From Girardia tigrina (taxonomy: Eukaryota), in contig MQRK01214937.1 of assembly GCA_001938485.1 (NCBI GenBank), forward strand, positions 1 through 60,096: a stretch of DNA of 60,096 nucleotides. The letters run 5' to 3'. Made by a program: the position numbers and the translations under genes. Each line of letters opens with the position of its first letter. Position 1 is the stretch's first letter. The notes beneath the pieces were generated by a model. The model worked only from the letters and a program-made list of their open reading frames with translations. It searched no databases and was not told where the DNA came from. Shown in pieces: positions 12,291 to 45,935 of this stretch.

Positions 12291-12768
12291 TTTAAATTTT
12301 TATTTCAAATAATATTCATATCGAGCTAATTATTCGTTAAAACAAATTCGTTTTTTTATAATAATAATTTATACACCAAAATCAACAATTTTACTAAATC
12401 AACGATAAAACCTTTTAAAGAAATATAAATTTTGTTCTGTAAGCGAAACGACACAATTAAATTTGTTTTTCGTTTAAATTGAAATAAAATAGTGTCAATT
12501 GAAATAAATTTCGTTCTTTTGAATTATAAATAGTAAATAAAGTTAATTATTAAAATCTGTTCAATATTTGTTCTTTGTCCTTTCTTTGATATTAAATTCA
12601 AGATTACTTCGATCCACAAAAACAGAATAGGAAACGGCATTCATATACAACGAAATATACAAAAAAAAAATAACACAAATATAACCAAAACAAATACAAA
12701 CACAATTACAAGGTTTCCAAACTCTCCTGTACAACAAACAATAAAAAACAATAATAAAAAAAATTTAG

Positions 12769-13266
12769 CTTTAAAATTGTCATTAATCGGTCGACAATCG
12801 ATAGCATCAAATCGATTCAATTGGGTCAACTCGAAAAACAAATCGATATTCGTTCGAGAATTTCGTGAATAAACCGAGAAAACGTCGCCCGATTGGAAAT
12901 CGATTGAGTGATTGGAAAAGGTAATTAATCGAGTGTCTTGGAAATGAGTGGATGACGTCATGAGGAGATTGGATTTGAGAGAGAATTCCGTGTAACCCGA
13001 AGGACACTTGATGGGATTAGGTGTGTTATTGGGACAAGAAAAATCTTGCATCACTTCAATAATCGTTCGTTTTTGACGATAAAAATACGAATACAAATCA
13101 TCGATATTCGCGGCATCAGACAACTCAATCAAACGTTCTTTCTCCAAATCATTATCAGAAAGACACGCAAATTTCTCGAAAAACGAATTTCTCGGAACGG
13201 AATTCAAATCGAATCCACACAAAATAACATTCAACAAATCAACACTTGACGTTAATAATTTCGGCA
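12769..13266 (-). pseudogene. NDOR1: NADPH-dependent diflavin oxidoreductase FAD-domain fragment with its two halves in swapped order
   Basis: DLNSVPRNSFFEKFACLSDNDLEKERLIEL...YSYFYRQKRTIIEVMQDF and SNLLMTSSTHFQDTRLITF...FQSGDVFSVYSRN match the NDOR1/Tah18 motifs VPRRSFF...RPRRTILEVLCDF and HFQDVRLIEF...GDV. Confidence 0.85.
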
Positions 13267-14074
13267 CTAAAAGTATTCGATTTGATAATTATTATCAATA
13301 AATAAATAAACGGCGATCTTTGACCCGAAACCTTGACCACACGAGCGAAATTGCAGTAATTGAAAATCGATTATGGTGCTTATTGGTACTAGTGATAGTA
13401 GTAGTAATCGTCATGATGGCAGCGATAAAGACGCACTCGATCACCACTCTCACACTAGAGACTCGCCGGGAATTCGTCACACGAAGCGATAACCCGCGGC
13501 CGCATCGAGACACAATTAAACTGTGTAATTTATTTGTTTATTCTGGCACAAATAAAAGATAATAATAATAAATATCGTAATGATTTTGATTAAAATTTGT
13601 ATAGGATAAATTAAAATAAATATGTTTAAAAAATTGAAATTTTATCATTGTAGTTAGCTTAAATTAAAATTAAAAATTACACAAATAACAAAATTTTCTG
13701 TAATCTAAAATCTATTAACATTTATAAAATATAAGTTCAAAAAAAAATTTTTCAATGCATTATTAAAAAGAATTCCACACAAAACGACACAACAAATGAT
13801 TCAACAGTAAATTCCCAATTTGTTTTACTGCATCAAATGTCATTTAGTATTTACACCGTTATATATTATCTAGAAGTATAGAAATCGTTCCTTGTCTCTT
13901 CTCCTTTTTTTTTATTCATTTTAAAGTAATTGCATTCATTTAATATTCACAAATATTAATTATATATTATTTTTTTATATAAATATTAATTAAAATTATA
14001 AAATTAAATTATATATAAATATAAATGAAATAAAAGTAATTAATTAAATAATTAATTTATTATATAAACATATA

Positions 14075-16902: not shown

Positions 16903-17440
16903 TGTTAACGACACACAGTGACATTCTGTCAGATAAGACCCTCGGGAGTGCAACAATACTATAAATTACCAAGTGACATAACAATACCGCAAGTCTAATC
17001 CTACACGACAGAACACATCGCCTTAAGTTTCTAAAACAGAGATACATAACAGTGCAGCAAGTTTACAGGGAGACATAACATTGCCTCAAGTTTCCGAAAC
17101 ATAGACACACAACAGTGTAATGAGTTTTATATTATACAACAGTACCGTAAGTCTCATGCCACACAGAGATGGAGTATAAGTCATCCCCGAGCAACACTCC
17201 GCTAGGTGGGGGCCAATAGCCCATCCCATCTTTATTGGAACCCGATGGCCCTTCAGACTCGGCACTGCCAGGCAGATGTCGAGCGAGAAGAGGCGTCCGA
17301 TCCATAAATAAAGAGAATAGCGATATAGGTATTAGAATGAATTGTAAAAAATGTGAATCAAAATCGGGTTGTGGCTGACCCTTAATAGTCACTGGGGGCT
17401 CTGAGCACTTAAAACTGTTATGAACAAATGAGTCGTGACA
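16903..17440 (-). mobile_element. Solo-LTR-like element, family D, abutting the truncated 5' end of LTR A
   Basis: TGT at 16903 and CGTGACA at 17434-17440. The minus strand begins TGTCACG...CTCAGAGCCCCCA. It has an internal degenerate ~30-bp repeat array. Confidence 0.5.
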
Positions 17441-19277
17441 TTATTAAAGGAAGAAATTAATTAATAGACGCCCACGTATTCCTTGTTTAATTAATTGCAC
17501 TTGTTAATTATCCTTTTTCTGGGACACCTAAAGACTTTGATTTAACAAGGGTCCCTATTAAATTTCTGTAATGTTATACTTGCAGTAACATTTTTGGACA
17601 TGCAACGTATTATTTTTCATGAGAATGTCTTGTTTTTTGTTTGAGGAGTTTTGATTCTTGTATAAATATGTGCTCGATTTTTGTAAAAAAATAATAAAAA
17701 TAAACGTATTCCACATTTTGGACTCCATTTTTATGGTAAAATCTTTGTTTTATGGAGGATAGAGAGTTGAGGTTTTGATGGCCGCCGATCCGTCGACAGG
17801 TAACGGCAGGTGCTTTTATAGCCTGCCGCGACTGTTGACGATCTGGCAGCTGAAGATGAGTAATAACTCCCCAACACATTCGATAATATCACCATGAAGA
17901 ACTCAACTCGCTAACCTCTATCAACCTTTTTTCCTCTTTGTTTTTCTTTTGTGTTGATGGTTAAAGGAAATGTTCATCGTCATTGTCGCTCTTCTCTCTT
18001 AGGAATGCAAATTGCTCTCTTAGGTGAGCAAAAACGAGTCGCAGATTCTAGCCCTGTCTAAAGAAAATCAACGGCTCCTTCAGGAAATCCAGGTATTGAA
18101 GCAATCAAATGACCAAAAGGAGGCCCAATTATCGAGACTCAATGCGGAGTTTGAGGACTACAGAAGACAGTCAGTCCCAATGTCGGTACATTGACCCATG
18201 GTCAAAAATATGTTCAATCTCAACAAAGAAATAAACAACTTCAAATGAACGTTGATGAAGAGAGAACCCAACAAAATATTATGAGCTATCAACGTAAAAT
18301 GGTCCAACGAGTTTCTCAAGAGCACCCGGAGCTAATTGTTGAGGCGGCTAGGAACATAGAAACTAAGATAGTCGATGATCCAAGAAACAAACCTACAACC
18401 TCCAAATCAAGAGTTTACGCCTCAATAATAAGAGAATATATGGCATCCTCTTCTCCGAGCATCATCAGCCGAACATAGAAACGGCGAGAACAGAGGAAAC
18501 GAAAAGCCTAACTGGACCAACAAGCGCGAATTGAAGTGGAGGTTATCAAAACCCATACGCGTTTGGATACAGTGGTTGGAGAGCAAGAAATCCTGGACGA
18601 AGGTGGTTTCGATTTTGAGAGGATTGACCGATCGCCACAGCCCAGCATACATAATAAAATCGCCGTACCCCTTTTAAAGATTGGTATTGAAGAAGTAATC
18701 AGGAGGCAAAAATGGTTAGATTGGGAAGCCAAGTACAAAACATGGAAGGAAGGTCGAGACCGCCTATTGTACTGATCAATCACAACTGGTCAAAACGAAG
18801 AATTTGTGGTTTCGACCGACTCGGTTGATTAATGACGATGAACAGATTCTTCCTTTTTTATTTTTCTTTTGATTGATTAACAAATAGCAACATTTAGAAT
18901 TTGATTGCGTTTTTTCTCTTGTGGTCTATCTATAAAAATATAAAAGATAAAAATAAGTAGTCTAATCTAAATAACAAATAAATAATCAATTAAATTAGGT
19001 AATGATTCATAAATGAATGCAGCATATGATATTAAAGAACATAAAGACACAGAATTCCGATCGATAAAAAACAAACAAAATTTTCAATCATTAGGAACCC
19101 GGTAGATACTTGATTTTGTTCACTGGTGAAAGGATGGGAGCAGATGAACTTAATTGGGTATGGCATAGACCATATACCAACATCAGGAAGAGGTACCTGA
19201 TGGGGTTTATGCCAAAATTAATGTTGGAATTGAACCCATAATTAATTTATTTAAAATAAAATTTATTGAACCCAGTA
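17441..19277 (+). mobile_element. Family A LTR (lacking the first ~70-80 bp), 5' LTR position
   Basis: High identity to 34469-35121 + 40595-41831. It ends GAACCCAGTA (other copies CCCAACA/CCCAGCA) and is followed by a PBS. Confidence 0.85.
18005..18832 (+). pseudogene. LTR-encoded ~270-aa coiled-coil protein with Arg-rich motif (unknown family), disrupted copy
   Basis: ORFs 18191-18478 and 18536-18775 join into one frame when compared with 40595-41384. A splice acceptor (ctcttag) precedes it. Confidence 0.75.
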
Positions 19278-19286
19278 TATTATTTA

Positions 19287-19304
19287 TGGGGGCTCAGCTG
19301 GGAT
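19287..19304 (+). promoter_or_regulatory. Primer-binding site, tRNA-Pro-like (copy 1)
   Basis: TGGGGGCTCAGCTGGGAT matches 15/18 of the canonical tRNA-Pro PBS TGGGGGCTCGTCCGGGAT, after a 9-nt spacer from the LTR end. Confidence 0.75.
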
Positions 19305-19584
19305 TTGTTTAAACAATGAATTTTTGTTTTTTTTTTGAAGTAAAAGAATTACATGATAACATTTTTTTTGAGAAATTGCCGAAATTTTTATTTAGTCTAA
19401 TGAAAATTTCAGAAGGTTTTTTAATGATGGCATATGTATTGGAATTTATTCCACGTCAACGGACAATATTTGTGTGGGTTTTATTGTCTTTGGTCAGTGG
19501 AAAAATGGCAGTTAATTATTACAAATGGTACGTCGAAAACACCATCAAAATAAATTGAGAAAAGAAAAACCGAAAGATAAATTT

Positions 19585-19925
19585 GAACCTAAATAACAAA
19601 TAAATAATCAATTAAATTAGGTAAGGACTCATAAATGAATGCAATATATGATATTTAAGAAGAAAAATATACAGAATTCTGATAAAAAAAACAAACAAAA
19701 TTTTCAATCATTAGGAACCCCGTAGATACTTGATTTTGTTCACTGGTGAAAGGATGGGACCAGATGAACTTAATTGGGTATGGCATAGACCATATACCAA
19801 CATTAGGAAGAGGTACCTGATGGGATTTATGTTGAAATAATATGTTGAGATTGAACCCACAGTTACTTTAATTAAAATAAAATTTATTGAATCCAACATA
19901 TCATTTATGGGGGCTCAACTGGGAT
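19585..19925 (+). repeat. Family A LTR 3' fragment plus PBS (copy 2; PBS 19908-19925)
   Basis: Repeat of 18964-19304, ending ATCCAACA then TGGGGGCTCAACTGGGAT. Confidence 0.85.
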
Positions 19926-20221
19926 TTAATATATTTATAATTTCTAATTATATTATTTCTTTTTATTTAAAGACAAAGTTGGCTGCACTGATTTTGCTTG
20001 CAAATTTTTTATTTGAAAAGGAGTACTTAACCATGGTGGGATAACATTTTACATGACAAGTACGAAAATCAATAGGACAGTTTAATTGTTTTTTATATTT
20101 ATTGTACATGCGACCATTTAAAAACGATAAACGAGTAGTGTATTTTAAATTATGGGAAATATTTACAACTGATAAAATAAAATTCTGTAAAGATAGCGTT
20201 TAGGTAAAATTATAAATGTCC

Positions 20222-20472
20222 ATGGCTCATCATGTCCATTAGTTCATTCAAATCTGTATGCTTCCCTCTCTTCGGAGATATTCCAGTAAACTGCCCTTGC
20301 TCAACAGTTACGTTACAATATAGATGGGCTCATCCCTGCAAATGATATAAAGATTCACGAGATTTGCATGATTTAGTTTTTCTTTATTCGAGCATCTTTT
20401 AGGAATTCTTTCTTGGCCGTGGTATCAGGTTTAAGGTTTTCATAGCTACATCAATTGTTTTTTTCCACAGAC
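20222..20472 (-). pseudogene. Src/Frk-family tyrosine kinase exon (subdomains II-V), decayed
   Basis: After acceptor cgtttag the sequence reads [81 protein letters not shown], with three frameshifts and one stop. It is absent from the ORF track. Confidence 0.85.
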
Positions 20473-21389
20473 CTAAACGATTAAATACTAACACATATAA
20501 CAATAATTATGATTAGTAAAATAAAATGTAAATGGTAATCTTTAATGATATAGCATGACAATAGAACTTTCATATTATGAAACAAACAATAAAACTATCT
20601 ATAATTTCAAAAAAAATATTTGAAAGTACAAATAAATGTATAAAAACTGCATTTATTTATTTATTAATTATCTAAAAAGAAATTGTAAAATTAATTGATT
20701 TCTTACCTTTATCAGAACTTTCAAAACGTGGAGTGCCAATTCATTCATAACATATGTGAGGAGAAAGAGAAAAATCCCCATAGATATAATCCAAATAAAC
20801 GTCCCGCGTTTAAGTCGAAAGAAACTAACTGGAAAAATATAATAAATATAGAGAAAATATGATAAATTTAAATACCGTTGATTAATTACGGTTATTATAA
20901 AAATAATATAACAAATAAAACGAAATATAATACTCTATATTTTATAAATAAAATGTTACCTAAAGGAAAAGCGATACCCTTATGAAAAAGGAGAACAAAA
21001 ATAATTTTTTTTGATTTATTAAATTTCATTTATTTGAATTAACACATTAAACTATAATGAAAAAATATGTATATAATAAATAAACAAATAAATAAATTAT
21101 ACATATAATATGTTTAAAATTATACATAAAATATACATAAAATAAATTATAAAACACTAAATTGATGTAATCACATATTTTACTAAAACAATAAAGAACT
21201 CAAATCTTTCTTAATAAGATTTTCCGTAAAAGGTAAAGAATAAAATCATATTTTAAACAATTTTGAATACATGTCTTCCAAGAAAGTATAAGTTTTGAAA
21301 ATATATGTGAAATAATGAACAGAACATTTGAGAAAGGTTGCAACTTCCAGTTAAATAAACAGAAGTTTAATTATAGTTTAACAATTAAA

Positions 21390-21628
21390 TCGCCGTGAGT
21401 CGAGATTTTAAAGCTGAACTCGTGATGGCGGATACCTTTTAGAGAAAAAAAATCACCACGATATGAGGTAAAACTACTGAAAATCGTCATGGTGGATACA
21501 TTTAAGATATTAAAATTACCACGGAGAGCGGAAATTGAACCTGCGCGCCCGTAGATTTTTAGGATTGTTGGCCGGTCCAGATTTTGAGGATTTAGGAGGG
21601 AACAATAGGCCGTAACCGTTATGGTAGA
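21390..21628 (+). repeat. Structured leader block; diverged second copy at ~23670-23846
   Basis: aatcgtcatggtggataca...gcggaaattgaacctgcgcgccc...cgtaaccgttatggtaga occurs at both sites. Confidence 0.85.
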
Positions 21629-22341
21629 CATCCTGGTCGAAGGTGATTTCGATTTTAAGAGGATTGACCGATCGCCACAGCCCAGCATGGATAACACAAT
21701 TGCCGTACCCCTTTCAAAGATTGGTATTGAAGAAGTAATCAGGAGGCAAAAATGGTTAGATTGGGAAGCCAAGTACAAAACATAGAAGGAAGGTCGAGAC
21801 CGCCTTTTGTACCGATTAATCACAATTGGTCAAAACGAAGAATTTGTGGTTTCGTCCGACTCGGATGATTAATGACGATGAACAGATTCTTCCTGTTTAT
21901 TTTTATTTTGATTGATTAACAAATAACAATATTTAGAATTTGATTGCGTTTTTTCTCTTGTGGTCTATCTATAAAAATATAAAAGATAAAAATAAGTAGT
22001 CTAACCTAAATAACAAATAAATAATCAATTAAATTAGGTAAGGACTCATAAATGAATGTAATATATGATATTAAAGAACATAAAGATACAGAATTCCGAT
22101 CGATAAAAAACAAACAAAATTTTCAATCATTAGGAACCCGGTAGATACTTGATTTTGTTCACTGGTGAAAGGATGGGGCCAGTTGAACTTAATTTGGTAT
22201 GGCATAAACCATATACCAACATCAGGAAGAGGTACCTGATGGGGTTTATGCCAAAAGTAATATGTTGGAATTGAACCCATAATTAATTTAATTAAAATAA
22301 AATTTATTGAACCCAACATATTATTTATGGGGGCTCAGCTG
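21629..22341 (+). repeat. Family A LTR 3' portion (to 22318) plus PBS (copy 3, from 22328)
   Basis: Repeat of ~18590-19300, ending ACCCAACA then TGGGGGCTCAGCTG. Confidence 0.88.
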
Positions 22342-24738
22342 CGTTTAAAAAAAAGAACATTAATTTGTGTTATCTAACATTTCAAATTAATTATATCAAA
22401 AATATATATAAATGTATATTTCCCTTTTTTACTCCTTTACTCAATGAATTTCCTTAGAGCTTTTTGCTTTTGAAATCAAATTATAGATCCTAGATTGGAT
22501 TTAAATTATTCGAACATAATACAATAAATGTTTTCGATAAACAAAATTATAGCTGGAATTATTATTGTTCTGAGAACCATTAAAAATGACACTGAATCAG
22601 ATAATGATCCGTTATTACATAGAATTGAACACGTCCCGAAATAATTTATCTTCAATTATGATTTGCAATAGTATAAACGGGAATAATCTTTGTTCCATAA
22701 AACCAGCATTATTATGGTACGACAATTAGAAACAAATTCTTTACCTCTTGAAAATCTCAGCCTTTAAGACAAATCATATTTTTATTTAGTAAATACAAAT
22801 ATTCTGTTTGTTCGAGTTGCAATGTGATTTTTGTCGCTTTCATCAACCGATCCTTCGAAACATACACCAGAAAAGAGATCATTGCCACCGAATAATGGTA
22901 AGGAAGGATCGTTTCCACCGATAAATTATTGGGAAATATTATGAAGAAAATGAAATGAAGTATAAAGAAATAACATCTACGACAAGTCATTTGAGATTTG
23001 GTATTTTCTGTTCCATGTGAGATAATAAATAAATAAAGAGAAATCAATTAATCGTCGTTCTAGATTGGTACATTTTTATACACTAGAGTCGGATTTCGTT
23101 TACATTTTCCGATCGTGGATACTTGGCATTTAATGTTACACCAAGGTGTCGATTATCCAAAAAAATAAACAGACGAAAAACGATGATGATAATCATGAAA
23201 GACAGTAATAATGAAAATAATAGCTAATTTTAATTATTTATATTTCAAATTAAATCTCCCTTTGTAAAATAAAAAAAATGCGTAAAATAGGAATCATATT
23301 AACGCAATTTAATAATTAGTAATATAAAATGATAATATTTATCACTTATTAAAGGATACTATTACTTAGGGTAAAGTAAAAGGTATCATTAAATGGAATG
23401 ATCTAACATTTATTTCAAATAAAGGATGAGAGAAATAAAACCGAATTGGATCAAGTGTTTGAAAATAGAGAATAAGAAATACATATCTGTTTAAATATGA
23501 TAATTGTTGAAAAGCGGTAACAAAATTAGTTTAAAAATAATAATAATAAAAATAAAAAAATAATCTCCCATAAGTCTATTAAAGACAAAGACTTTACTAC
23601 CAAGAACGTCACGAAAACCACTTATGACCTCAAACTAAACGAAATAAAATTAAGATTATATATGATAAAATTACCACGATTGGATGTTGTAAAGCGAGAA
23701 TCGTCATGGTGGATACATTGGAATTAACGAAATTACCACGGAGTGCGGAAATTGAACCTGCGCGCCCTTAGATTTTTATGATTGTTGGCCGTTCCAGATT
23801 TTGAGAATTTAGGAGGCAACAATAGGTCGTAACCGTTATGGTAGATATATACTTTTGAAAACGAAAATGATATGATTAACCATCGATGATCCTACTAAGA
23901 GCAACTAAGTCGGACTTAGTGGTGAAGTAGCGGCGGATACTTGGTAAGGCCGGTTAGCGAAAATATCAACGAACACCACAGACAGATCATAATAATAATT
24001 CTTCCCCAGTAGGTGGACTCTGAAGACGGAGAAAAATAACGACTGATCAGATCTGTACTTCTAATAAAACCGAGAAGAATAAACAACCTCTTAAAATGAA
24101 CACAAAGGAATACAACAACACAATGATAAAGAAACACTTAGATAATAAATATTTCTTTTCCAGTAGGTGGATTCCGAAGAAGTGAAGAGAAAGAGTTATT
24201 TATGAAAAGCCACAATAAGAGCTTTTAACTGACAAATAAATAGCTTCAATTTACCAAAAGGTGTTTTAAAATAAAAAATGAATATAAAGTGATATCAGTC
24301 CTAATAAACAATTAACGAAAAAGAAAAGTACATAATTAGTCCATAAGAGAGAGAACCTGGATAAAGTGAATTATAGATATAATGTGTTTAACCCTCTTCC
24401 TTCGTTCCTTGCTTTATTTTTTGTTGTTTGTTTTACTTCCTTTTCTTTCTTTTTCTTTCAGTTTTAAAAGTTGGAAAGGAAGACGCGAATACAATAAGAT
24501 TTTTGTGGTTTTAGAAAAAGAAAAGGAAAATAACACAATCTCAAGAGAGCAAGTTGAATTAAAGAAGATAACTACCATAAATAACAAACGTCAATTTCTT
24601 TTCAAAAGCAAGATTGATCTTCGAAGTCGATTTGCTAAAACCCAAGCGAACCAAAAAATTACCCAATATTACGAGAAGAGACCGAATATAATTCTAGTGA
24701 ATTCAAGGAAATCATTGGTGCCAATGCATGTCATAGCA

Positions 24739-25150
24739 AGACGCATGCAGACGCATGTGGATGGTCTCCAATAGCTCGTTTTCAACGATTACCATTATAT
24801 CTTGAAGGAATTGCTCTTACTCTGTATGTAAACGAGTTGGAGAAAAGAACCATTTCTGATTTTGCAGTAGCAGTAACCTTTCTTAAAGGACAATTTTTAA
24901 CGTCAATGACACCAACACAAAGATATAATAAATTTATAAGAAGACGACAATTTCCCGAGGAATCGATTTTTGAATATGCAACTGAACTAAAGAGACTGGC
25001 TCAAAATGTCAATGTATCGGATAAACCTGAAGATGCAATAAAGGATGAGCAAATACTTGCTATATTTATGGGATGAATAAAAGATCGACGAACATCTAAT
25101 CATCTATATCTACAAAAACCTACATCCTTAAATACGGCCATATCTATGGA
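24739..25150 (+). pseudogene. Gypsy-type gag (capsid) fragment
   Basis: ADACGWSPIARFQRLPLYLEGIA...FLKGQF...RRRQFPEESIFEYATELKRLAQ...FMG*I...PTSLNTAI. Confidence 0.85.
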
Positions 25151-25185
25151 GTCAAGAAGATGAAGTATATAAAAAAGATAAACCA

Positions 25186-27420
25186 TTGTGGCAGATAGCA
25201 GAAATTTTACGAGATCATTGGACTGAAATGACGCAAGAAAGTGTTGATGCCACAAGGGAATTGATAATTCGAATATCGAAGGAATATCAAGTCGATCCAA
25301 GAAAACTTAAATATCATGATGGTACCACTGAATATGAATTGCATTGTAATGAGCGAATACTGACCAGAGAATTATATGAAATACTTGGAATTGATCCAAA
25401 AGGATCAGAAATACTACAATATGACAAAAGACCTATCCCAAGCAATGATAGACCAATAACCGAATATGATCTCTGGCAAAATTTGAAAAAGATTGTCCCA
25501 ATCTTGAGGAAGATGAGTCAAAATGACAACTGGAAAAATTTGCCGTATCCCGGAAACCAATATCATGACTGTATTCAATGTATAAAGATGTATAATGAGT
25601 TTATAAAGATAATAGTGGGGGAAATGAATGTTGAAGGATCACTGTCAGAGGATAATGGAGCTCGGCTGACTATTAAATTAATCATTTCAAACGTAGAATC
25701 GGCCTTTGACACAATCCCAAATGAAAGCTAAAGATATTTAATAAGTACTATCAAATTGAGGGAGAGCAACTACCAGAACTCTGTAAATTAATTTAGAAAT
25801 GCGAGGAAACAATTAAAGGAGTAGATAACCCTAGGACTTATCAATTATATGTTATCTTTCCAAATTTCAACAAGTATCATCTTAGCGAGTTACATAGTTT
25901 AAATACGAGAGAAATAATCCATGATTTAATTAACTTCTATAATATATCAGAGAAGACAGAATTTATGGTTGAGGATTATTAATTGTTTCACCTGAGAACA
26001 CCAATCCAGATGGGTAAAAACTTATTCGAAAATGGAATCTGGCCACATTGTGAGACTGAAATTTATCTTATTTCCGCACAAGAAATACTATTGCCAACGA
26101 TGGACTGGGAGTTGGAACTCTAAAAACTCAAAGTATTTGCTGCTTGCCTCAATATTGAGGATATTACCTATATAAAGAAATTTCATCAAGAACTAGGTAT
26201 TGCGGATAAAGTTTACAGCCAAATACTTGACATTTTACAAAACTTCCATCTTTTAACATTTGAATTGAGCAATATGGGAGAAATAATAAATCTTATTCAA
26301 GATTTACGGAATATAATTCCTGAAACAAAGCAACATGTAATAAATGAAATATTACAGAAATTTGCAAGGAACAAAACTTGTGAATTATTAAATCTATGGG
26401 TATATTTCCCCGATGAGACTGTCATCACAGTAGAGATATCCAGATCCACCGACAATGAAACACTCTACAAAATAATTTAAAAAATAATTGAAGAAAAAAC
26501 CAAAGACGAAGGGGAAATTGATTTCAAATTAGTGTATAATGGTACAAGAATCAAACGTAACAGTAAATTAGTTGTTAACAGTGGGCTATGGAATGGACGA
26601 AGATTATATGTATTGAATTGGAAAGATTTGGAAGAAGATTCTACCAGAAATGCTCGATTTTGTCGAGAAATGAATGAAAAATTTCAAAGGCTATATGGAA
26701 AATATGTTCAACCAGTAATAAAAAATCTTGGTGTATATAACAAAAAAGAAAACATTACAGAATGTTCAACAAAAGATTCCGAAGATATCCAGATAATATC
26801 CGAACAGTCATCAATGATAGAAATAAATACATTAGAGGAAAATAGAGATAAAAGTTTATCATCCCTCTGTATTGATGAAGACGAGAGATTAACGAAAGAA
26901 AATAACGATTTAAAACGAATTAAATTTCTCCTTTGTCATAACAAAATGAAGAAAGAGGAAATAATATCTATATTAACAGATTTAGACCCATTATTAGTGC
27001 CGTTACATGAGTTGAGGGTATTATTATACCTCTGTGAAAGATCAAAATTTATTCGAGAGTGGATACCTACTAGAATAGAGTTATTATTAGATATATGGAT
27101 TAGAAGGAAATAGAAACTGATGAAATAAAATATAAAATAAAGGTGGTAATGCTAACTAAAGAAAATAGTCAGACATTTACATTACCTATATATGCTACAA
27201 TTAATGATATTAAGCATTTATTACCATATAGAGATAATTATAACATAATAATTGATGGTAACCTTCATGAAAATGATGTTTATCTCGGTCTGACAAATTT
27301 GGATGAGGAAATCGAAAATGAAATAGAATTAGAATTACCGGAAAAACAGAAATGGTTATTAAAAGTATGGAACCCTCCACAAATGGAAGAAAATGGCACC
27401 GAAATAACTAATCAGAAATT
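25186..27420 (+). pseudogene. Accessory polyprotein region with about four ubiquitin-like (beta-grasp) domains
   Basis: Repeated ~70-80 aa units with ubiquitin-like pattern, e.g. NLWVYFPDETVITVEISRSTDNETLYKII*KII...FKLVYNGTRIKRNSKLVVNSGLWNGRRLYVL. Long reading frames are broken only by scattered stops and frameshifts. Confidence 0.55.
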
Positions 27421-27472
27421 TGAAGGAAAAAATTTTGAAGAAGTATTAAAGGCATCAAAAGGATCACCTTTG

Positions 27473-29300
27473 ATGACAATATTAATGATAATGTTGATTC
27501 TATTTTCAAATATTGCGAAGTTTAATGCATTTTATGGCTATGATTGTGATAATATGGAAATTGGAGCAAAGCAATATTCACTACTAGACACCGAAGACTG
27601 TCCAGAGGCCACGCCATCAACATTCATAAGTATTAGTAATAATACAATATATCACGTATATCAGGAATCACTTTATCAAACAGTGGCGATTAGAGAATGT
27701 AAAGTATTTAGAAGAAGATTTGCCTTCAACTGTGGATATCGCTCCTGGACATCAATAGTTAGTGATGGGTTAACAAAAGAAACAATTCATCTCACAAGAC
27801 AACAATGTGAAGACGGCTTTGTTACTAGAGAAATTAAAATTGAGGATTCAAGAGTAAGAGCCGTAAAAAAACGCAATCACGTATTCAAAAATCAATAGAG
27901 CAGGAAGAGTTACGTCAACGGCTGGCGATTGTGAAGAAGGTATATTTTCCTTGAATGGCGAAGTTGCGAAGCACATAGTAGTGATAGATACTTTCGAAGT
28001 AGAATTGAAAGAATTTAAAGGACATTTTGATGCCAATATGGGGGAAATGAAAACACACCATAAGTGTTTCACAAAAGACAGATCTTGCGAATATGGATCA
28101 TCAATATTGATTTATGATGTTAGAACGGAAGAATGCAACGTTGTGCTACTTAAAACAGCAACATTTGATGAATTTAAGTGACAAAATCTTAGAGAACCCG
28201 ATGATGAAGAAGTTATTGAAAGTCAAACCAGCCAAGAGGAAATTTAAAAAAAGGTTATTGGAAATAAAAGGAAAAGTGTACAATTGCAAGCTGAAGATAC
28301 TCCAACAGCCTTAATTACTAATAAAAAATAGGAATGGATGCACTTCATTAAAGGAGATCACTAAATGTGGGAGGCAAGTATTCAAAACAAATTACAGGGA
28401 GATTTATGTTAGTAGATATAAACTACCAACAATTTTTGGACAAATAAGTCCGGAAGATATGAATCATGAGTCCTATTTTAATAATAAAATGGAATTTCTG
28501 TACCATAGAGGTTTGTCAAATTTAGAACATACCTATTTCGACTTAATAAAAAATGATTGTAAACTAAATAAGGAATTACTGCGAACTAAATTAGCAATGT
28601 CAGTCACTAATGTCGATTTTATAGTACCTTTACCTCCTTTAAAACCTGCGGAATTTTGGAGAATTGTTGGAGAGGCTATGTTCATATACAAATGTGAAAA
28701 GGTAGTATTGAATATCATAGCAGAAAACACAGAATGTACAAATGAGTTGAAAATAAAACTCAAAGGACAAACTCGTTATGTCCAACCAATTACTAGACTA
28801 ATTTTACCAATAGAGTTCACACCTCTTAGAATAAACTGTTCAATAATAATGGCTCCTCTTTATAGAAATGACAACGGTAAATGGGTACGATTGCCAGATT
28901 TCCAACCTTTACTCACAGAACCACTACAATTTAGCTTAATGAAATTGGAAAAGGGTCGAAGATTTGAATCTATTAATATTAAAGATATTGGTTATTATAG
29001 TGATGTCGACTTTAAAAGAGCTAAAAAACATATATTTTTCCCTATAGCAAGGAATCAAATTATTTCTAAAATAATACATACGGTAGCATCAGACATGGCA
29101 GGGTATCAGAAACCTGATTTTGAACTGTTACTTTCACCGGATCATTTTTCAAAAGCAGCTCATAATGTAATGGAAAGACTATGGGGGAAATTCATTATTT
29201 TTGGTCAAGCAGCTTCAGGAGTATTAGCTATTATTATCATGTGAAGTATGATAAAAACTATAATAGCTCAATTATTGGCGTGTTTTGACGTCTACAAAGA
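27473..29300 (+). pseudogene. env: Envelope glycoprotein, chuvirus-G / herpes gB-like (class III fusogen), disrupted
   Basis: Signal-like MTILMIMLILFSNIA, then GYDC...YSLLDTEDC, FNCG, QQC, C(K)LNKELL, GEAMFIYKC, CTNEL, QPITRLI, NCS..MAPLY, WGKFIIFG and a C-terminal TM segment. Confidence 0.82.
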
Positions 29301-30745: not shown

Positions 30746-31489
30746 TTACTCCCATATTTCAATTTCAGGAGTATTATCATCTAAGTCGACTGAGTTTTCA
30801 TTCCAGGCCTGAAGAATGTTTTCAATTGGATCTTTCCAGCCACTGTTGACATTGTTTTGATCCAACACTGTACTAGATGGATTTAAATTTTTGTCCAAAG
30901 AATCCACTGTCAAAATTGGATTTATCCTTTCCACTACATCTGGAGGGTGCTGAGATGATGTTGAAGGTATTCCGGAGTTGAAATCATCGATGAATTCATC
31001 CTCGATTTTCCGATAAATGTCATACACAGCTCGTGCATCCTCCTGTGAATTGTGCTTTCCCGGTCTTTGAATTTCTTTACCCAGAAGAACGGATGCGACA
31101 TCCTGCAACTTATTGTATTGACCTTCTCCCTTTGGGTACATATTCCATTTTTCCAGCGCTCTTGCGGTTGCCAAGTCTCTTATACCCAGTAGAGACTTCT
31201 TGTCGATGCACAGATGTGTGACTTCCATCTGTAAATCGTGTCCAACAAGGATTTTTCCCTTGCAGATTTCTCTGATTCTTTTAAGGATGTCATACTCATC
31301 CAGCTGCCTCCGAAGCTGTCTTTCTGTAAGTCCATGGACTTTGGTACCTAATTGTTCAATTCGATGTCTTGGAGTGATCAAGCAATCTATAACGGTTTTT
31401 CCTTCCTTGTTCAATATTGTAACCGACACTGACACTCTCGAATTGTCAGCCATTTTACACGAGAATTCAGCATCTAAAAACAATAAGTG
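30746..31489 (-). CDS. DEDDh 3'-5' exonuclease (REX4/ISG20/RNase T-like) carried by the retroelement; part of a longer decayed ORF (~32180-30500)
   Basis: LFLDAEF (ExoI), TKVHGLT, KILVGHDLQME (ExoII), IRDLA, KLQDVASVLLGKEIQ and HNSQEDARAVYDIY (ExoIII). Confidence 0.88.
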   Translation of the reverse strand, partial: HLLFLDAEFSCKMADNSRVSVSVTILNKEGKTVIDCLITPRHRIEQLGTKVHGLTERQLRRQLDEYDILKRIREICKGKILVGHDLQMEVTHLCIDKKSLLGIRDLATARALEKWNMYPKGEGQYNKLQDVASVLLGKEIQRPGKHNSQEDARAVYDIYRKIEDEFIDDFNSGIPSTSSQHPPDVVERINPILTVDSLDKNLNPSSTVLDQNNVNSGWKDPIENILQAWNENSVDLDDNTPEIEIWE

Positions 31490-32029
31490 TTGTCTTATTT
31501 CCTATTTCTCCAAATGTTTTCGGATAAAGCTTTTCCGGTGATTAAAATCCTTTTCGGTTGGGTTATAGACAGAACCAACTAGATGACCTTCATCTTTATA
31601 TAATTTCGGATTATAATTGGCCTTTGGGTATTATCTGTATTCGACCGCAACGATAGCCGGTCGATCCGCAGCTTGTATAAAAAGGTTTTTGTCATCGACA
31701 GTTATGCGCCATTTTGACGATCGAGCACCGAATTGATAGACTTCTCCTTGTTGAAAACCTTTACGAGTTCAGCGGCAATATGTAGTTCAATGTCGCCATT
31801 GGACATTTCGTAACATATGTCTGAGATCATTTTGGATTGATTGTTGAAAATTAATTCAAGGTAGATCTCCATTTCGAAATCCGTTGTCCGAATATAATTA
31901 GGGAAAGCAAGATTGTCACGGAGTCACCTTTTGAATTGTCCCGTTCGAGTACTCAACATGTTGCAAAATTCCACATAGATTTTGCCGGATCTCGTAGTCG
32001 ATTTTTGAAGCATTGACTGTTTCATTGGT

Positions 32030-33630: not shown

Positions 33631-33659
33631 GTAATTTTTACTTTTCTTTGGTTTATCCA

Positions 33660-34200: not shown

Positions 34201-34204
34201 TATT

Positions 34205-34468
34205 ATCAAAAGAAAACAAACGAATATCAGTTATCGGAGCAGTACAATGCAATTCAAAGGAAATATTTGTATGATTGACTACAAACTTTAACTTTTGATT
34301 TAAAACATTTAATCATTTGTGATCTGAATTTATTATAATTATATCATATAATCTTAGATTGTGTAACTCTTTCATGCTATGAGTGTTGTCTCAAAGATTT
34401 TATCTGTAGTGATTAGATTATTTTTATTGTACGATTCCGGGGCGGAATCTACGTAAATCCCCCAGTAA
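34205..34468 (+). mobile_element. 3' end of the family A internal region
   Basis: Similar to 43640-43872, including the hairpin GATTCCGGGGCGGAATC shortly before the LTR start. Confidence 0.65.
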
Positions 34469-35121
34469 TGTTGGGATCCCAGGATTTGCTTGGGCGTCAA
34501 TTTTAATTATTTAATTAATTGATTAATTGTAATGACCTAATTAATGGACGAAATTAATTAATAGACGCCCACGCATTCCTTGTTTAATTAATTGCATTTA
34601 TTAATTATCTTTTTTCCGGGACACATAAAGCCTTTGATTTGACAAGGGTCCCTATTAAATTTCTGTAAGGTTATACTTTCAGTAACATTTTGGACATGCA
34701 ACGTATTCTATTTCATGAGAATGTCTTGTTTTTGGTTTGATTAGTTTTGATTCTTGTATAAATATGTGCTCGATTTTTGTAATGTTATAATAAAAAATAA
34801 ACGTATTACACATTTTTGGACTCTGTTTTTGGTAAAATTTTTTGTTTTGTGGAGGACGGAGAGTTGAGGTTTTGATGGTCGCCGATCTGTCGACAGGTAA
34901 CGGCAGGTGCTTTTAGTGCCTGCCGCGTCTGTTGACGATCTGGCAACTGAAGAGGATGTAATACTCTCCAAAACATTTTATAATATCACCTGAAGAACTC
35001 AACTCACCAACCTCTGTCAACCTCTTTCTTTTTGTTTTTCTTTTGTGTTGATGCTTAAAAGAAATGTTCATCGTCATTATCATTCTTCTCTTTTAGGAAT
35101 GCAAATTATGTTGAGCAAAAC
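34469..35121 (+). mobile_element. Family A 3' LTR, left part
   Basis: Starts TGTTGGGATCC, the inverse of the LTR end. Matches 17441-18030 and breaks at GCAAAAC. Confidence 0.87.
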
Positions 35122-36101
35122 TGTTAGTGGTTTAGTACGTTTAATGCTGGGTATAACTAATTAAATTGACGTTTAACATGATTCTGTTCAAGCAAATATA
35201 TAATTCTGAGTTAAATCAACTTTATTCGAAGGCTGCGTTGCTTGTTCGTAGCTCGAACCCAGCTCAATATTTGATACCGTTAAATTTATTTCAATTCAGA
35301 TCAATAACAAATATTATAAAATTTATATTTGATAATCACAAAATTTTGTACAAGGATCTTTGATATAATAATCAAGACTGAATAACAATTTGATGGTAAC
35401 TTGTTTAAAAATGTATTTTCTTTTTATATTTGCTTTTTGTGTTTCAGTTTTGCTTTTAATTGTGTATTTTTTTTAAAATTTTTTTGAGGGTATTTATACC
35501 CGATTTTATTTATATATAAAAAAATATACATATATTACAATATATTAAAATTTTAATTATTATTTATTTTATAATTTTATTATTATTATTATTATTCATT
35601 TCTTTAATTTGGGCCAACATGTGGCACCAATTAGTCAACCCGCTCTGAAATCTTGGGTGACATTCCATGTAACATTCCATGATCATTCCATGAAAAAAAT
35701 TGAAATTTTGCCAACATGTGGCATAAATCTTATGGGAATTTGTTCCCATCAATCTTATTTTTGGATTTTACAAAAATTGTATTTCTACTTGGGCGAGATT
35801 ATACGCGATTGGCGAAGCCAATCGGTTCATCGCCCAAGTAGAAAAATTTTCATTTTTTCCAAAATTGAAATGTAAGTAAATTTTTATTTAGTAATAATAA
35901 TAATAACAACAACAATAATAATAATAAAATAATATATTAATAATAATATTAANNNNNNNNNNNNNNNNNNNNNNNNNNNNNNNNNNNNNNNNNNNNNNNN
36001 NNNNNNNNNNNNNNNNNNNNNNNNNNNNNNNNNNNNNNNNNNNNNNNNNNNNNNNNNNNNNNNNNNNNNNNNNNNNNNNNNNNNNNNNNNNNNATAATCA
36101 T

Positions 36102-36600
36102 ATGTCGTGCTCCCCTTCAAACAACATTATTAGCGACTCTGAGCCCCCATCCGTTTTTCTTTAGAGTTCAACGGCAACTCTATCAAATTAAGTTAACTAT
36201 AACTCAACAGGGAGCAGACGCAACTCTCTTGTCAACATCAACGAGTTTTGCAGACATTAGAGCGCCTTCGGGTCCGTAACCAGTAACGAGGACATCCCGA
36301 CTGGTAGCTGAGTTTCTGGAGGGGTAGATGTGAACTTGATTTACGCTTATTTCGAATTCATTTTATTTTCCTACAACGGACAAAGACACCCTAGAGCCAC
36401 AAGTGACGGTCAGCCCACGTACCCCTGTGCATTCTATGGGCCGCCTGCACCGTCTCTCTAGACCCTCTGTCCGTTTATGCTTGACTCATATAATTATACG
36501 AAGTTTATAGTGTTACATATTATGTTTATTTAAAGAACAACGGGTTCAACGAAATGTCGACTCTAAATGTTAACACGCTCAACAATAAATACACTTACAA
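36102..36600 (+). mobile_element. LTR-like fragment, family D (3' boundary uncertain)
   Basis: Starts TGTCGTG, has CTCTGAGCCCCCA ~34 nt in, a GC-richer body and a downstream AATAAA. Confidence 0.45.
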
Positions 36601-39064
36601 ACCCATCAAGTATGACAGGAGTTTCAATAAAATAAATAAAATGTTTTACTTCTAGATAAATGAACTTTAGGGAAACTGCATTTAAGATTTGTCGGAAGTC
36701 CTTAATTTCGTAAGTTATTTTTCAGTAAACAAGTACGAGTATTCGACGGGACCCCCCCAAAATTGTTGTTCGCGGCACAATAATACATTAAAGGTGTTTA
36801 ATTTCAAGAAATGTTCGTTATCCGGAAATAATAATAATTGAAAGGACAATTTGTGTTCTTCTACATGAATACTTCATCATTTACTTGATACTAAGGTACA
36901 AAATATCTGTAGAGTCGAACTTAATATTAATTATTGACAACCTTGTTTAGTTAGAACGACAAACGAGACAGTACGTAAAATTTATTATAGTATTTATGCT
37001 CAAAAGACCGCTAACTATTGTAAAACATTTGATAATGTCATTTTTTCTTTGTATGATGTCAGAAAACGAAATTGATTTATAAGGTAAAAATAATTACGAC
37101 ATTTTTATGACACAAATTTTGGCTCGCATGATTGTAAGAAGCACGGTTTATTTCTCGATAAGTAAATCTTTCCCAATTACAAATTAAATTTCGATTATGA
37201 AGTATTTACATAATTTGAGTATTGCTGTATACAAAAAAAATAAAATTGTAATGGCTATTTGATTTTAATAAATCAAGATCGATTTATAAATTTCCAATTA
37301 AATTATTTTTAGTTTACTGTAAAATAATAATAGTAATCTTTTCTTTTCGTTCGATGAAATCATCAAGAGGATAAATAAAGGAATTTTAGTCTTTCTAATT
37401 GATAAAACAATCAATATTCTATTAAATATGAAAAATGATTCGAAAGTTTGAACATTATCATAATCCATCAAATCAGTTTTTTGGTATGGTTTCTTGTACC
37501 ATGGAAGGAATATCAAAAGAGTTGCATCAGCACATTCCAATTTGGGACTTTCGTTCTTTGTATTGGAATTTATTATATTTACTTTGGTTTATGATTGATT
37601 ATTTACTTCTTGATTTGGCAGCATAAGATTTCAATGATTTTTAGGACTTCTGTGAATCATTTAATGATCAAAAAATAAATCCTATTTCGCATTATTGATT
37701 TTTTACCTTTTTAGAAACAATAAATTTGTGCATAGCTACAAAAATTAAAACAAGAAAAGTACATCATGTATAACCAGTCAAAACGAATTCCCAAAAAAAT
37801 ATTCTGCAATTGAAATACATAGTAGCAAAGCAGTATTAATTTCATCCTACTCATTTTCTTCTAGAATGCAACTTTATAATGGATTGCCACACTTCATCCA
37901 TAAAAATCAGTTAAAGTGATTATTTCATATTATTGAAATTAATTATCGGATTGAATATTTAATATCGCCTAAAATAATTTAATTCGTTAACACTAATGTA
38001 AACATGACATGTTTAACGATATTGTCTGAAAAAAAATTTTTTTTAAACAAATTAGATATGAACTTTAAATATATATATTTTAAGTATGTAAATATTTTAG
38101 TTAATAGAATATACAAATATCAGATCTGTCAAAAGCTCCTGAAGGATTAATAAAAAATTTTTATTATAACAATTAGTTTTAACTTCAGTATTCGAAATTT
38201 CTCGTTTTTGAATATTTATCGAATCTTTGATCATTCTAACAATCCATTTGAAAATCTCAATTATAAAATTTCTATAAACAAATTAGATTTATTTAACAAA
38301 TTTATTTAACAAATTTATTTTAACAAATTAAATATTTAAAACATAAAGTTGTAATAATTGTTAAGAGAACTCACACATTTGACAGAACATTTATTACATT
38401 CACAATTTTTATCATCTTTATGATGATCAACAGTAAGGCTTTTACTAGATTCCATCAATCAATTTTTCCATATCTCTCATTATAATCTGAACTAACTTGA
38501 GAAAAATATTTTATTTAAAAATATTTACTTTAAATTTTATTGGCTGAAATAAAATATTTTTANNNNNNNNNNNNNNNNNNNNNNNNNNNNNNNNNNNNNN
38601 NNNNNNNNNNNNNNNNNNNNNNNNNNNNNNNNNNNNNNNNNNNNNNNNNNNNNNNNNNNNNNNNNNNNNNNNNNNNNNNNNNNNNNNNNNNNNNNNNNNN
38701 NNNNNNNNNNTATAAAAATTAAATATTGACAATCCATCTGGTTAGGAGAGGCACAATCGCAAATCAACATACAACATTTAAACATACAAAAACTACACAA
38801 AAACATCCACACACCAAATATTCCTCACAATAATTTTAATCCGATCTTCAATTTATAATTAAAATCGATCGTTGAAAATCTTAATCAATCTAGTAAATAA
38901 GAATTACTTGCAGACATTTTTGATAGATCACAAAATAAATATAACAACCAAGCACCTAATTATTTAAATATTTCAAATTTATTGTTAATCTTGTAAATAA
39001 GAATTACTTCCGTAAATTTTCAATTAATGATAGATTACAAAATAAACATAATAATTAAGTATTT

Positions 39065-39890
39065 AGTTATTTAAATATTTTAAAATTTATTGTATATTGA
39101 AACCACAATTATCTAGTATTTACATCGCCATCTACACGGGCGCAACTCAATCGCGTGTCAGAGCCCGAGGATCATCTCACCGGATCCCTCGGATTCGGAG
39201 ACGGATTGCGATGTATCCCCACGTCGACATCTACCTTCATCTCTATTAATAACTAACGAACTATTAGATATAAGAGTTTTATTAGAATTATAAAATAGTA
39301 CAAACAGACAAAACAATAAAATGCGAATAAAATAAAATAATATACCGTAAATGTCTAGGATTTTCCTCAGATTAAATCGTGCAAATTAAAATTAAAAATG
39401 TCGTGGTCTGAAATCGAGTGTCGCGGCCCTGCCCTATATACTATACGGATGTGCTATCAACATAAACACAATCCGTCCGGTATTCAGCATCCGCGCAGGA
39501 TGCTCGCGGTCACGCAGGATGTGCGTGCAAAATGCCCGGTGATGTTTATCCACGCAGGATGTGCGTGATCAACAGGAACACGAGGTAAATTTTTTTTGTT
39601 TATTGTTCGTATATTTATCAAATTCACGTAGGATGCTCGTGGATAACCCGTGCCAATATCGTCTGGATTCGAATTCCAGATTTCAAATGTCAACGGTAAG
39701 TACTATTAATTAAATTAATTAAAATTTTAACTTTTGTTCTTTTATTTTAGAAGGGGTCCTCATCCTGTTCGGAGTTCGGCGCGCATTTACAATTAACGGG
39801 GGATAGTCAAGTTTGACTATCCCCCACACTTGCTAACTTTGGCGCGCGTCGGGTAACGAATGGGTGAAGGGGTCTTCTTGGGCCGTAACA
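39065..39890. repeat. Family B repeat, second copy
   Basis: Colinear with 14075-14938. Confidence 0.8.
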
Positions 39891-40594
39891 CATAAATAAT
39901 ATTACTTTTAATAATAACATTAATAATACAATTATAATAATAATTTAAAAATAAAATAATAATGATAATAATAATAATCAAATAATAATTATATAAATTT
40001 TTATTAAGTCAATCCTTTGGCGAACTTCTCCGCCCAAAGCAGGAGTACCCTCATAATGAATGGGTCCCTGCGGAGGAAAGAAAAACTCGCCGTAAAGGAA
40101 TATAATAATTTTAATTTCAAGAATACTAATAATAATATAATAAAAATAATTATGAAAGTGATAAAATTAATAATTATTAACAATAATTATAATAGTAATT
40201 ACACTAATAATAATAATAATTAAATAAATGATTATAAAAATAATATTATTAATTATAGCAATATTATTTATATTCATAATAATTTAGATTCTAATAATTT
40301 TAGTAATAATAATAATATAATAAAAATAAATAAAAATAAAATTAATGATGTTATAATAAATTTTCATTAAGATTTATATATATTTCTTTATTATTATTAT
40401 CCCAATTAACTGCCTCGCGTCCCTGAGCAACCTGCTCAAACAAAGGGAAGGTTAAAATGGGATTATCCGTCCTGTTTATTAGATTTATTTATTTGATTTA
40501 TTTATTTATTATTTTTTAAATTTTTTATTTAGGACAACGGGTACGCTTATTTATATATTTTATATTTTTCATATTTACAGAATCCCAACAAAAC

Positions 40595-41831
40595 TAAGTC
40601 GCAGATTCTAGCCCTGTCGAAAGAAAATCAACGGCTCCTTTAGGAAATCCAGGTATTGAAGCAATCAAATGACCAAAATGAGGCCCAATTATCGAGACTC
40701 AATGCGGAGTTTGAGGACTACAGAAGACAGTCAGTCCCAATGTCGGTACATCGACCCATGGTCGAAAAATATGTTCAATCTCAACAAAGAAATAAAAAAC
40801 TTCAAATGGACGTTGATGAAGAGAGAATCCAACAAAATATTATGACCTATCAACGTAAAATGGTCCAACGAGTTTCTCAAGAGCACCCAGAGCTAATTTT
40901 TAGGCGGCTAGGAACACGGAAACTAAGATAGTCGATGATCCAAGAAACAAACCTACAACCTCCAAATCAACAGTTTACGCCTCAATAATAAGAGAAGATA
41001 TGGCATTCTCTTCTCCGAGAATCATCAGTCGAGCACAGAAACGGCGAGAACAGAGGAAACGAAAAGCCCAACTGGCTCAACAAGCGCGAATTGAAGTGGA
41101 GGTTATCAAAACCCATACGCGTTTGGACACAGTGGTTGGAGAGCAAAAAATCCTGGACGAAGGTGATTTCGATTTTAAGAGGATTGACCGATCGCCACAG
41201 CCCAGTATGGATAATAAAATCGCCGTACCCCTTTCAAAGATTGGTATTGAAGAAGTAATCAGGAGAAAAAAATGGTTAGATTGGTAAGCCAAGTACAAAA
41301 CATGGAAGGAAGGTCGAGACCGCCTTTTGTACCGATCAATCACAACTGGTCAAAACGAAGAATTCGTCCGACTAGGATGATTAATGACGATGAACAGATT
41401 CTTCCTTTTTTATTTTTCTTTTGATTGATTAACAAATAACAACATTTAGAATTTGATTGCGTTTTTTCTCTTGTGGTCTATCTATAAAAATATAAAAGAT
41501 AAAAATAAGTAGTCTAACCTAAATAACAAATAAATAATCAATTAAATTAGGTAAGGACTCATAAATAAATGTAACATATGATATTAAAGAACATAAAGAT
41601 ACAGAATTCCGATCGATTAAAAACAAACAAAATTTTCAATCATTAGGAACCCGGTAGATAGTTGATTTTGTTCACTGGTGAAAGGATGGGACCAGATGAA
41701 CTTAATTGGGTATGGCATAGACCATATACCAACATCAGGAAGAGGTACCTGATGGGGTTTATGCCAAAAATAATATGTTGGAATTGAACCAATAATTAAT
41801 TTAATTAAAATAAAATTTATTGAACCCAGCA
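40595..41831 (+). mobile_element. Family A 3' LTR, right part (contains the LTR ORF to the stop at 41384)
   Basis: Matches 18035-19277, ends GAACCCAGCA and is not followed by a PBS. Confidence 0.88.
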
Positions 41832-44906: not shown

Positions 44907-45217
44907 TATATAAACCTTTCTTTTTTGTTTGTAGGCAAAAGGTTTGTTTCTTCTATAGTCAAGCGATGGAAGATGGGAGTTCAGAAACGTTAATAACCAC
45001 CGATGAGTTGACGGACAACGGCAGGTGTTTATATTGTCTGCCGAGACTGTTGACGAGCTGGTAGTGAAAATGAAAATTTCACATCATAAACGTTTGAAAT
45101 ATCATTGTCGTTCATAAATTGAGTTCTCTAATTTCTATAATTTTTTGTTTCGTTTGTTACATAAAACAATAAATAAATAGCTTGTCACTCGTAATTATTG
45201 TTTTTCTTCAGAAATGA

Positions 45218-45935
45218 ATGAGAAAAAAATTAATAGAAGAAAACGGCAGACTGTGTGAGGAAAATCACAAATTAAAGAGGAAATATGAAGGTTTGGAGGT
45301 GCGACTTATCCAAATTACGACAGAATATGAAAATCTTCAAAATAAATCAGTCCCCTTGGCTACTCATAAAAATGTATTTGATAAGTTACTTTCGAACAGC
45401 AAGCCAAAGTACTTAGAATGGAATAAGATGAAACGAGGATACAACAAAATGTCATCAACTATTGAAAGAACATCATTGATCGAGTTCTCCAGGAAAGTTC
45501 GAAAATAATAATTTATTCAGTCAACAAAATCGGAAAAACGTCAAGTCAGGAAAATTAAAATGCATCATCATCTTCAAATTCGACGACGTTAGTCGAACAA
45601 GAAAACGCTTAGAACAGAGAAAAAGTAAGGCTCAGTTGTACCAACAAGCTCAAGCTGAGTTGGAAAAAATCTATAAATCTAATTTTACGAATGACTTTGT
45701 AGTAGAGGTTGTCAGGGTAGAAGAAAGTCCCATATTGCTTCAACCAAACGAGTATAATAAAATAACTTTACCGTTGTCTTTGATCAAAAAGGATAAAATA
45801 ATCGAAAGGCAAAGACTGTTAGATTTTGAAACTAAAAGTCAAGACAAAAAAGCAAGACTAGAGTAACTGCTGTATCGCTGTATTAGTTATGGTCATGGAG
45901 AGGAATATATTGATTTATCTCAATCTGACGAATGA
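45218..45935 (+). pseudogene. Divergent homologue of the LTR-encoded protein
   Basis: EYENLQNKSVPLATH ~ EFEDYRRQSVPMSVH; RTRKRLEQRKSKAQLYQQA ~ RAQKRREQRKRKAQLAQQA; NKITLPLS ~ NKIAVPLS; LLYRCI ~ LLYRSI. Confidence 0.75.

Follow-up and report, generated by a model that had tools for sequence, protein, structure and literature searches.

In Gypsy elements the long terminal repeats (LTRs) are regarded as lacking genes, and a solo LTR is viewed as an inert promoter. A 60,096-nucleotide stretch of the Girardia tigrina genome, called here the window, raises the question of whether one such LTR encodes a protein and what this protein might do. An earlier note, made from the letters of the window, had pointed to a frame of about 270 codons inside the LTR and proposed an element-encoded, Tat/Rev-like regulator, possibly acting on conserved RNA structures on either side of it. 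We found that, contrary to the non-coding view, the LTR holds a real, selected and spliced gene for an orphan protein family, the function of which we infer below. A Gypsy gene lying wholly inside an LTR was not found in the literature by exact phrases in open papers, a question on which the Burro supplement and Repbase may also bear.

The repeat of about 1.89 kb is a true LTR, with TGTTGG...CCAACA ends, 4-bp target duplications and a primer binding site (PBS). The copy in the window, assigned to family A, spans 17436..19277 of the forward strand; its 5' end is clipped by about 64 bp and it ends in an altered CCCAGTA. A DNA search of the organism's own genome (40 matches of 91-100% identity listed from 248 candidates) yielded 30 loci. 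Both ends could be called in 17 of them (1829-1902 bp, one deleted copy 1367 bp), and 13 of these 17 carry an exact 4-bp target duplication, three of the 13 sitting in TA runs. Thus most family A copies are solo LTRs, and the position of the frame within the LTR, as originally described, is borne out. In the related families B and D (see below) the LTR termini are identical to these and flanked by target duplications; in family C the 5' end only was seen. A PBS-like TGGGGG stretch of the tRNA-Pro type (19287..19304, +) starts 9 nt past the LTR end, and is present at this distance in three window copies and in five of nine loci scanned. Furthermore, a TATA-like box (17661..17668, +) is conserved in families A, B, C and D and in a diverged relative, A', and we place the start site about 30 nt downstream of it. 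This conservation favours a location of the gene in R/U5, the alternative being an internal promoter in a long U3.

That the frame is encoded by an element is supported. The LTR belongs to a Gypsy element of the order gag-env-pol, as in planarian Burro. In the window we located a gag remnant (24639..25076, +; PF03732, E 2.4e-5) and an env remnant (27104..29244, +; PF24664, a fusion glycoprotein of the Monjiviricetes type). The latter lies upstream of the protease in a relative (L122) that is 98% identical to the end of the window env and has a 933-codon env frame with one stop, followed by the protease. One locus (L120) leads from this LTR through the leader into the gag region, another (L106) shows RT-RNaseH-integrase by Pfam and then the 3' LTR, and in five (L095-L097, L105, L106) integrase-region sequence and 3' UTR run into the LTR. 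No whole element with both LTRs on one contig was present among the fetched contigs, and the halves are linked via the shared LTR.

The window copy of the gene (18005..18832, +) is broken. Read plainly it has six internal stops; compared with open relatives of about 270 codons it shows a short start duplication, one frameshift near 18191-18203 and three in-frame stops. The peptide quoted previously was a composite of copies, whereas a naturally uninterrupted family A copy of 273 codons does exist (L005). It is the single open frame among the 28 distinct family A copies from the DNA search, the other 27 being broken. The methionine first proposed as the start is absent in seven of the 28 copies and in all three family A copies that lack the intron described below, so that translation more probably begins at the ATG three codons downstream. 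When the genome was searched at the protein level, with at least 147, at least 153 and at least 148 matches listed in overlapping sets, three further families emerged, B, C and D, and open copies of 256-273 codons occur in all four. Judged by these matches, the gene represents an orphan protein family in hundreds of copies. Two decayed relatives were also found, L107 and A'. The A' relic (45214..45935, +) lies within the window in a 3' LTR that comes after an integrase end (43063-43416); it aligns at 28-43% identity over three frames (best E 1e-17 against family A) and has an AG acceptor directly before its ATG, in agreement with the view that this diverged LTR keeps both the peptide motifs and the acceptor.

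Comparison of natural open copies from the four families gave amino-acid identities of 39-51% and nucleotide identities of 0.52-0.65 at the first, 0.66-0.74 at the second and 0.31-0.42 at the third codon position, with pS of 0.73-0.88 versus pN of 0.31-0.39. The other five frames contain 6-23 stops each. The same skew as between families was observed between A and A' in their longest segment (0.61/0.65/0.43). As open copies persist in four families at this divergence, with silent sites saturated, the frame was selected as protein, and its long-term constraint is clear from these alignments. Within families dN/dS gave a divided answer: net dN/dS is 0.20 between B subgroups (CI 0.08-0.52) but 0.64 between two A subfamilies (45 copies; 95% CI 0.32-1.42, an interval containing 1), and the value for D subgroups, 0.96 (CI 0.15-14), is uninformative. 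Since B alone is clearly low and the interval for A includes 1, constraint may be relaxed in family A. Coding selection is therefore upheld between families but not clearly within A. The B and D sets from protein searches are biased to open frames: 9 of 11 listed family B copies are without stops, and the open fractions in B (8/13) and D (6/14) were given no evidential weight.

All families share an arrangement of TATA-like box, short AT-rich exon, GT donor and an AG acceptor that precedes the ATG by a few bases. In the window the GT...AG intron measures 267 nt (17736..18002, +) and is exactly missing in three other A copies, which were found with a gapped pattern as loci joined precisely donor-to-acceptor; a stricter pattern requiring the ATG first proposed had no match in the genome. 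The corresponding pattern for B identified four intronless loci versus 118 with an intact acceptor. A family B solo LTR with a target duplication (L069) is without exactly the GT...AG stretch of about 352 nt. The D pattern gave no intronless copies in the genome, and reversed-pattern controls gave no matches. In total seven copies in two families show precise intron loss, supporting the acceptor predicted at about 18002. Two of the intronless copies are solo LTRs with target duplications, and the flanks differ between the intronless loci. Precise GT-AG loss in two families would most simply reflect reverse transcription of spliced RNA, with the intronless solo LTRs preserving the splice in DNA. 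In B, exon-1 haplotypes differ, a hint that the intron was lost more than once. In 200 bootstrap trees, from which L163, L132 and L134 were left out as too short, the two intronless A copies were never sisters and the two B copies were sisters in 41%; these trees neither show nor exclude a single origin of the intronless copies. We also searched for the junction in RNA. Contigs of four runs (three presumed RNA, one sample) aligned to an A LTR contained no GT-AG joint, so that the case for splicing stands on DNA; a single skip was seen in these contigs, 42 nt long and bounded by GG..GC, and thin intron cover in two RNA runs was given no evidential weight. Splicing would remove 2-12 upstream ATGs (counted within 450 nt).

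The RNA structures anticipated on either side of the gene were found as well. Hairpin 1 (17780..17851, +; z -5.4) is confined to the intron in all families, with one copy in A and A', two in B and C and up to three in D, and in family A it is located about 90-160 nt past the inferred start. Six copies fold with z from -2.0 to -7.3. In its alignment 95% of cells pair and 3 of 24 pairs are changed on both sides, a weak covariation whose score was reached by 31 of 500 shuffles. Hairpin 2 lies 3' of the gene (19106..19161, +), and its covariation is better supported: 6 of 19 pairs are changed on both sides and none of 500 shuffles reached the score, to which the tool attaches a caveat on the relatedness of the sequences. 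Rfam held no credible match for either hairpin.

The encoded protein has about 260-270 residues and is basic (pI 9.4), and no transmembrane segment was found in it (maximal 19-residue hydropathy 0.56). In an AlphaFold model, long N-terminal helices, probably a coiled coil, are followed by a basic segment that is also helical and by a disordered tail, none of them packed with confidence (pTM 0.23). The basic helix (18467..18520, +) carries five Arg and three Lys in open copies and is interrupted by stops in the window copy. Across families the motif consists of 4-5 Arg and 3-4 Lys, and it is predicted helical with pLDDT of about 77-87. The earlier description of a coiled coil with an Arg-rich motif is thus supported by prediction as to the coiled coil and the helix, but the motif itself is mixed, and its composition fits the reservation, made at the time, that it may be only a nuclear localisation signal (NLS). 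Conservation is highest in two blocks, the basic helix, which ranks first, and the last 20 residues. In the conserved tail (18770..18832, +) a hydrophobic core precedes a Ser/Asp run in a pattern like the SUMO-interacting motif (SIM) of Daxx. All families have the core and an S/T-D-S/L-acidic run, weaker in A with its three hydrophobic core residues. By pattern the tail is close to the phospho-SIM described for Daxx, IIVLSDSD (PMC8616421); this is a pattern match made without a chance control, and SIM patterns are degenerate. Cysteines number 0-1 in four reference copies, with no Tat-type Cys cluster, and matches to a nuclear export signal (NES)-like pattern map to sites that differ between A, B/D and C, no position being shared by all families.

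Searches for relatives outside the family were largely negative, in line with the claim that the protein is unrelated to gag or a host gene. Among 5.8 billion proteins (lengths 150-478 and 97-590 aa) family members only were recovered. In a search of 1.84 billion proteins five of six matches belonged to the family and the other was a repetitive protein matched over about 45 residues. Pfam gave no domain match for the LTR protein, a PDB profile search gave weak coiled-coil matches only, the ESM Atlas best score of 0.83 was uninformative, and Foldseek on the PDB and viral (BFVD) libraries returned nothing at E<=0.001, so the recommended AlphaFold and Foldseek check assigned no fold to these unpacked helices. 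One entry, P0003, bears the name sucrose-6-phosphate hydrolase, which we rejected, as the protein has no Pfam domain and shares about 90% identity with copies of LTR B.

Several known systems were compared with this gene. Coding frames in or overlapping U3, read from the 3' LTR, occur in MMTV (sag) and lentiviruses (nef). The present gene likewise lies inside the LTR; unlike these it is downstream of a conserved TATA box, has its own intron and encodes no transmembrane segment. Tat has a Cys-rich core beside its basic motif, in contrast to the 0-1 Cys here. Extra ORFs in the internal region of LTR retrotransposons are already known from plants and rotifers (for example gene23 of Grande); like the LTR gene they are family-wide orphans, some nuclear or with coiled coils, and have been proposed as accessory factors of the retroviral style (PMC7264820, PMC5408684). 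With the Rev/Rex/Rem/Rec proteins the LTR protein would share a basic helix, predicted here, a spliced mRNA (on DNA evidence) and putative structured RNA present only in unspliced transcripts; it differs from them by its much longer coiled coil and by the lack of homology and of a positionally conserved NES (PMC3856414). Rev-like regulation in a Gypsy element is already known: CERV, made from a spliced mRNA of Cer1 in C. elegans, is described as required for export of unspliced RNA (PMC10309623). Cer1 resembles the present element as a Gypsy/Ty3 element with a PBS of the tRNA-Pro type; its orphan protein, too, is of a nuclear type, is made from a spliced mRNA and combines a coiled coil with a basic, NLS-like motif. 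CERV, however, has a Cys-loop M domain, and its exons lie within gag and ahead of the 3' LTR (PMC10309623), neither of which applies here; the two are set apart by description, as the LTR protein is about 260 aa long, contains hardly any Cys and has its whole frame within the LTR, and protein searches gave no nematode-type match. Because it lacks one defining feature each of Rev, Tat and CERV, we do not class it with any of them, and the Tat/Rev-like function proposed at first is not established.

The explanation we tentatively prefer, at somewhat less than an even chance, is by analogy that of a CERV/Rev-like nuclear regulator of unspliced element RNA acting through the intron hairpins. Transcription would start from the conserved TATA box in the LTR, and splicing would strip the upstream ATGs, making the LTR ORF the first on the mRNA. 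Spliced RNA, free of hairpin 1, would make the protein, and unspliced RNA would keep the hairpins and serve as genome. The putatively nuclear protein would bind the intron hairpins, so that unspliced RNA of the element could leave the nucleus and be put to use, as with CERV and Rev; such a choice between spliced and unspliced RNA is the logic described for Rev with its response element (PMC3856414) and for CERV (PMC10309623). SUMO binding by the tail, suggested by its pattern, may be the effector surface that replaces a classical export signal. This reading gains from hairpin 1, which is intronic in all families and repeated one to three times, as fits a multi-site binding element, from the basic helix as the most conserved and predicted helical block, from the CERV precedent in Cer1, and from the rarity of intronless copies. 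On the other side, Rev-like proteins carry CRM1 signals (PMC3856414), whereas the NES pattern is not at the same place between families; the basic motif contains Lys as well as Arg, as would suit an NLS; searches revealed no known regulator similar in sequence or fold, with a model of low pTM; dN/dS in A does not exclude 1, that in D is uninformative and no intronless D copy was found; hairpin 1 covaries weakly and RNA-run contigs gave no splice joint. In addition, Gag might bind the hairpins as signals for packaging or dimerisation.

Nuclear exit of unspliced LTR-retrotransposon RNA has an element-encoded solution in one case found, CERV, and the LTR gene is a second candidate, compact in that the putative protein and its putative RNA target are encoded next to each other. 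A fuller version, in which a complex-retrovirus regulatory circuit lies wholly inside a Gypsy LTR, comprising promoter, intron with repeated response hairpins, gene of the reader protein and a SUMO-binding tail in place of the export signal, is doubtful. If it were true, each solo LTR would be a free-standing regulator gene, and full-length elements could come under trans control by the hundreds of solo LTRs.

The conserved tail, which the earlier note had missed, opens a rival mechanism, compatible with the Rev-like explanation and not exclusive of it, although we consider it unlikely. The protein might be a SUMO-linked anti-silencing or chromatin factor, with the basic helix as NLS or nucleic-acid tether, the coiled coil for oligomerisation and the SIM binding SUMOylated silencing machinery so that the copies stay active; its source, in trans, could be the solo LTRs. 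Conservation of the last 15-20 residues is strong in spite of their predicted disorder, their pattern approaches that of Daxx in all families (PMC8616421), and planarian Gypsy elements are described as under nuclear PIWI silencing (PMC8532177). The same degeneracy of SIM patterns, the short core in A and the uncontrolled match speak against it, and it leaves the amplification of hairpins inside the intron unexplained. Quite unlikely is a Tat/Tas-like activator that binds either LTR DNA or hairpin 1 of the nascent transcript and drives LTR transcription by positive feedback. The distance of hairpin 1 from the inferred start in A, an acidic tail and the position of the gene as first product of the LTR promoter would suit this, but hairpin 1 does not lie at the extreme 5' terminus and is lost on splicing, and the Cys-rich core is absent. 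Less probable again is a structural or host-directed accessory protein, serving as particle scaffold, in nuclear import of the integration complex or in manipulation of the host cell, with the hairpins as Gag-bound packaging or reverse-transcription signals. The long predicted coiled coil agrees with this, as do plant extra ORFs that have coiled coils or nuclear location and, as described, no known RNA role (PMC7264820) and the host-modulating domains carried by Burro elements (PMC6431247); a separate spliced LTR mRNA would, however, be more fitting for a regulator that acts early than for a particle protein needed in stoichiometric amounts. Finally, the reading that the frame was captured or arose by chance and is now decaying in the LTR is barely credible and largely refuted, for the broken state of 27 of 28 A copies and a within-A dN/dS compatible with 1 are met by one open frame kept across four families at saturated silent sites, by intron loss precisely onto the start of the gene, and by the neutral decay after insertion that is expected of dead copies.

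Among planarian elements, Burro/GYPSM1 shares with the present one the Gypsy pol order and a mononegavirus-type env between gag and protease (PMC6431247). Burro elements are of giant size and have BIR, MATH, BCL2 and SUMO-like domains, for which the window ORFs scanned gave no Pfam or PDB match, and the LTR here is about 1.9 kb; an LTR-encoded gene is not mentioned in the accessible passages of the Burro review (PMC6431247). Between gag and env the window contains about 750 codons of frames (25132-27400, +); the ubiquitin-like look, by eye, of two segments within 26481-27400 found no Pfam or PDB support and was rejected.

The usual spacer between LTR end and PBS is 1-3 nt; here it is 9 nt (19278-19286 and 22322-22330 in the window) and conserved in eight copies. 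A PBS of such a tRNA-Pro type is described for Cer1 elements (PMC10309623). The 3' part of another A LTR with PBS (21626..22321, +) runs into leader and gag. Across 17436-24639 there are three tandem LTR 3' ends with PBS (about 19277, 19900 and 22321), and a leader piece of 180 bp is repeated at 21449-21631 and 23667-23848, which suggests nested or recombined copies. A family A 3' LTR (34469..41831, +), preceded by the element 3' UTR (34205-34468), is split by an insertion of about 5.5 kb (about 35122-40584). Before the 3' LTR (34436-34468, 43855-43879) a plain purine tract is absent and a short GC inverted repeat stands instead; the same last bases also precede family C and D LTRs. AATAAA comes after the TATA box in A, B and C and is missing from family D (L135-L148). 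An open frame of 182 codons with a hydrophobic end and no Pfam match (L106:3198-3743) follows the integrase and extends into the 3' UTR, and a related stretch is found at 43448-43651 of the window. At one locus (L064/L116/L117, G000:C247834) a family B LTR lies between RT and a Monjiviricetes-type env of a pol-env element, either inserted or its own. A second LTR-type element on the minus strand (30746-31501, 32843-34230) has an integrase end followed by an ORF and a DEDD exonuclease (PF00929), resembling the exonuclease ORF3 described for rotifer elements (PMC5408684). Also on the minus strand, positions 12641-13288 of the window hold a fragment of an FAD-binding reductase (PF00667).
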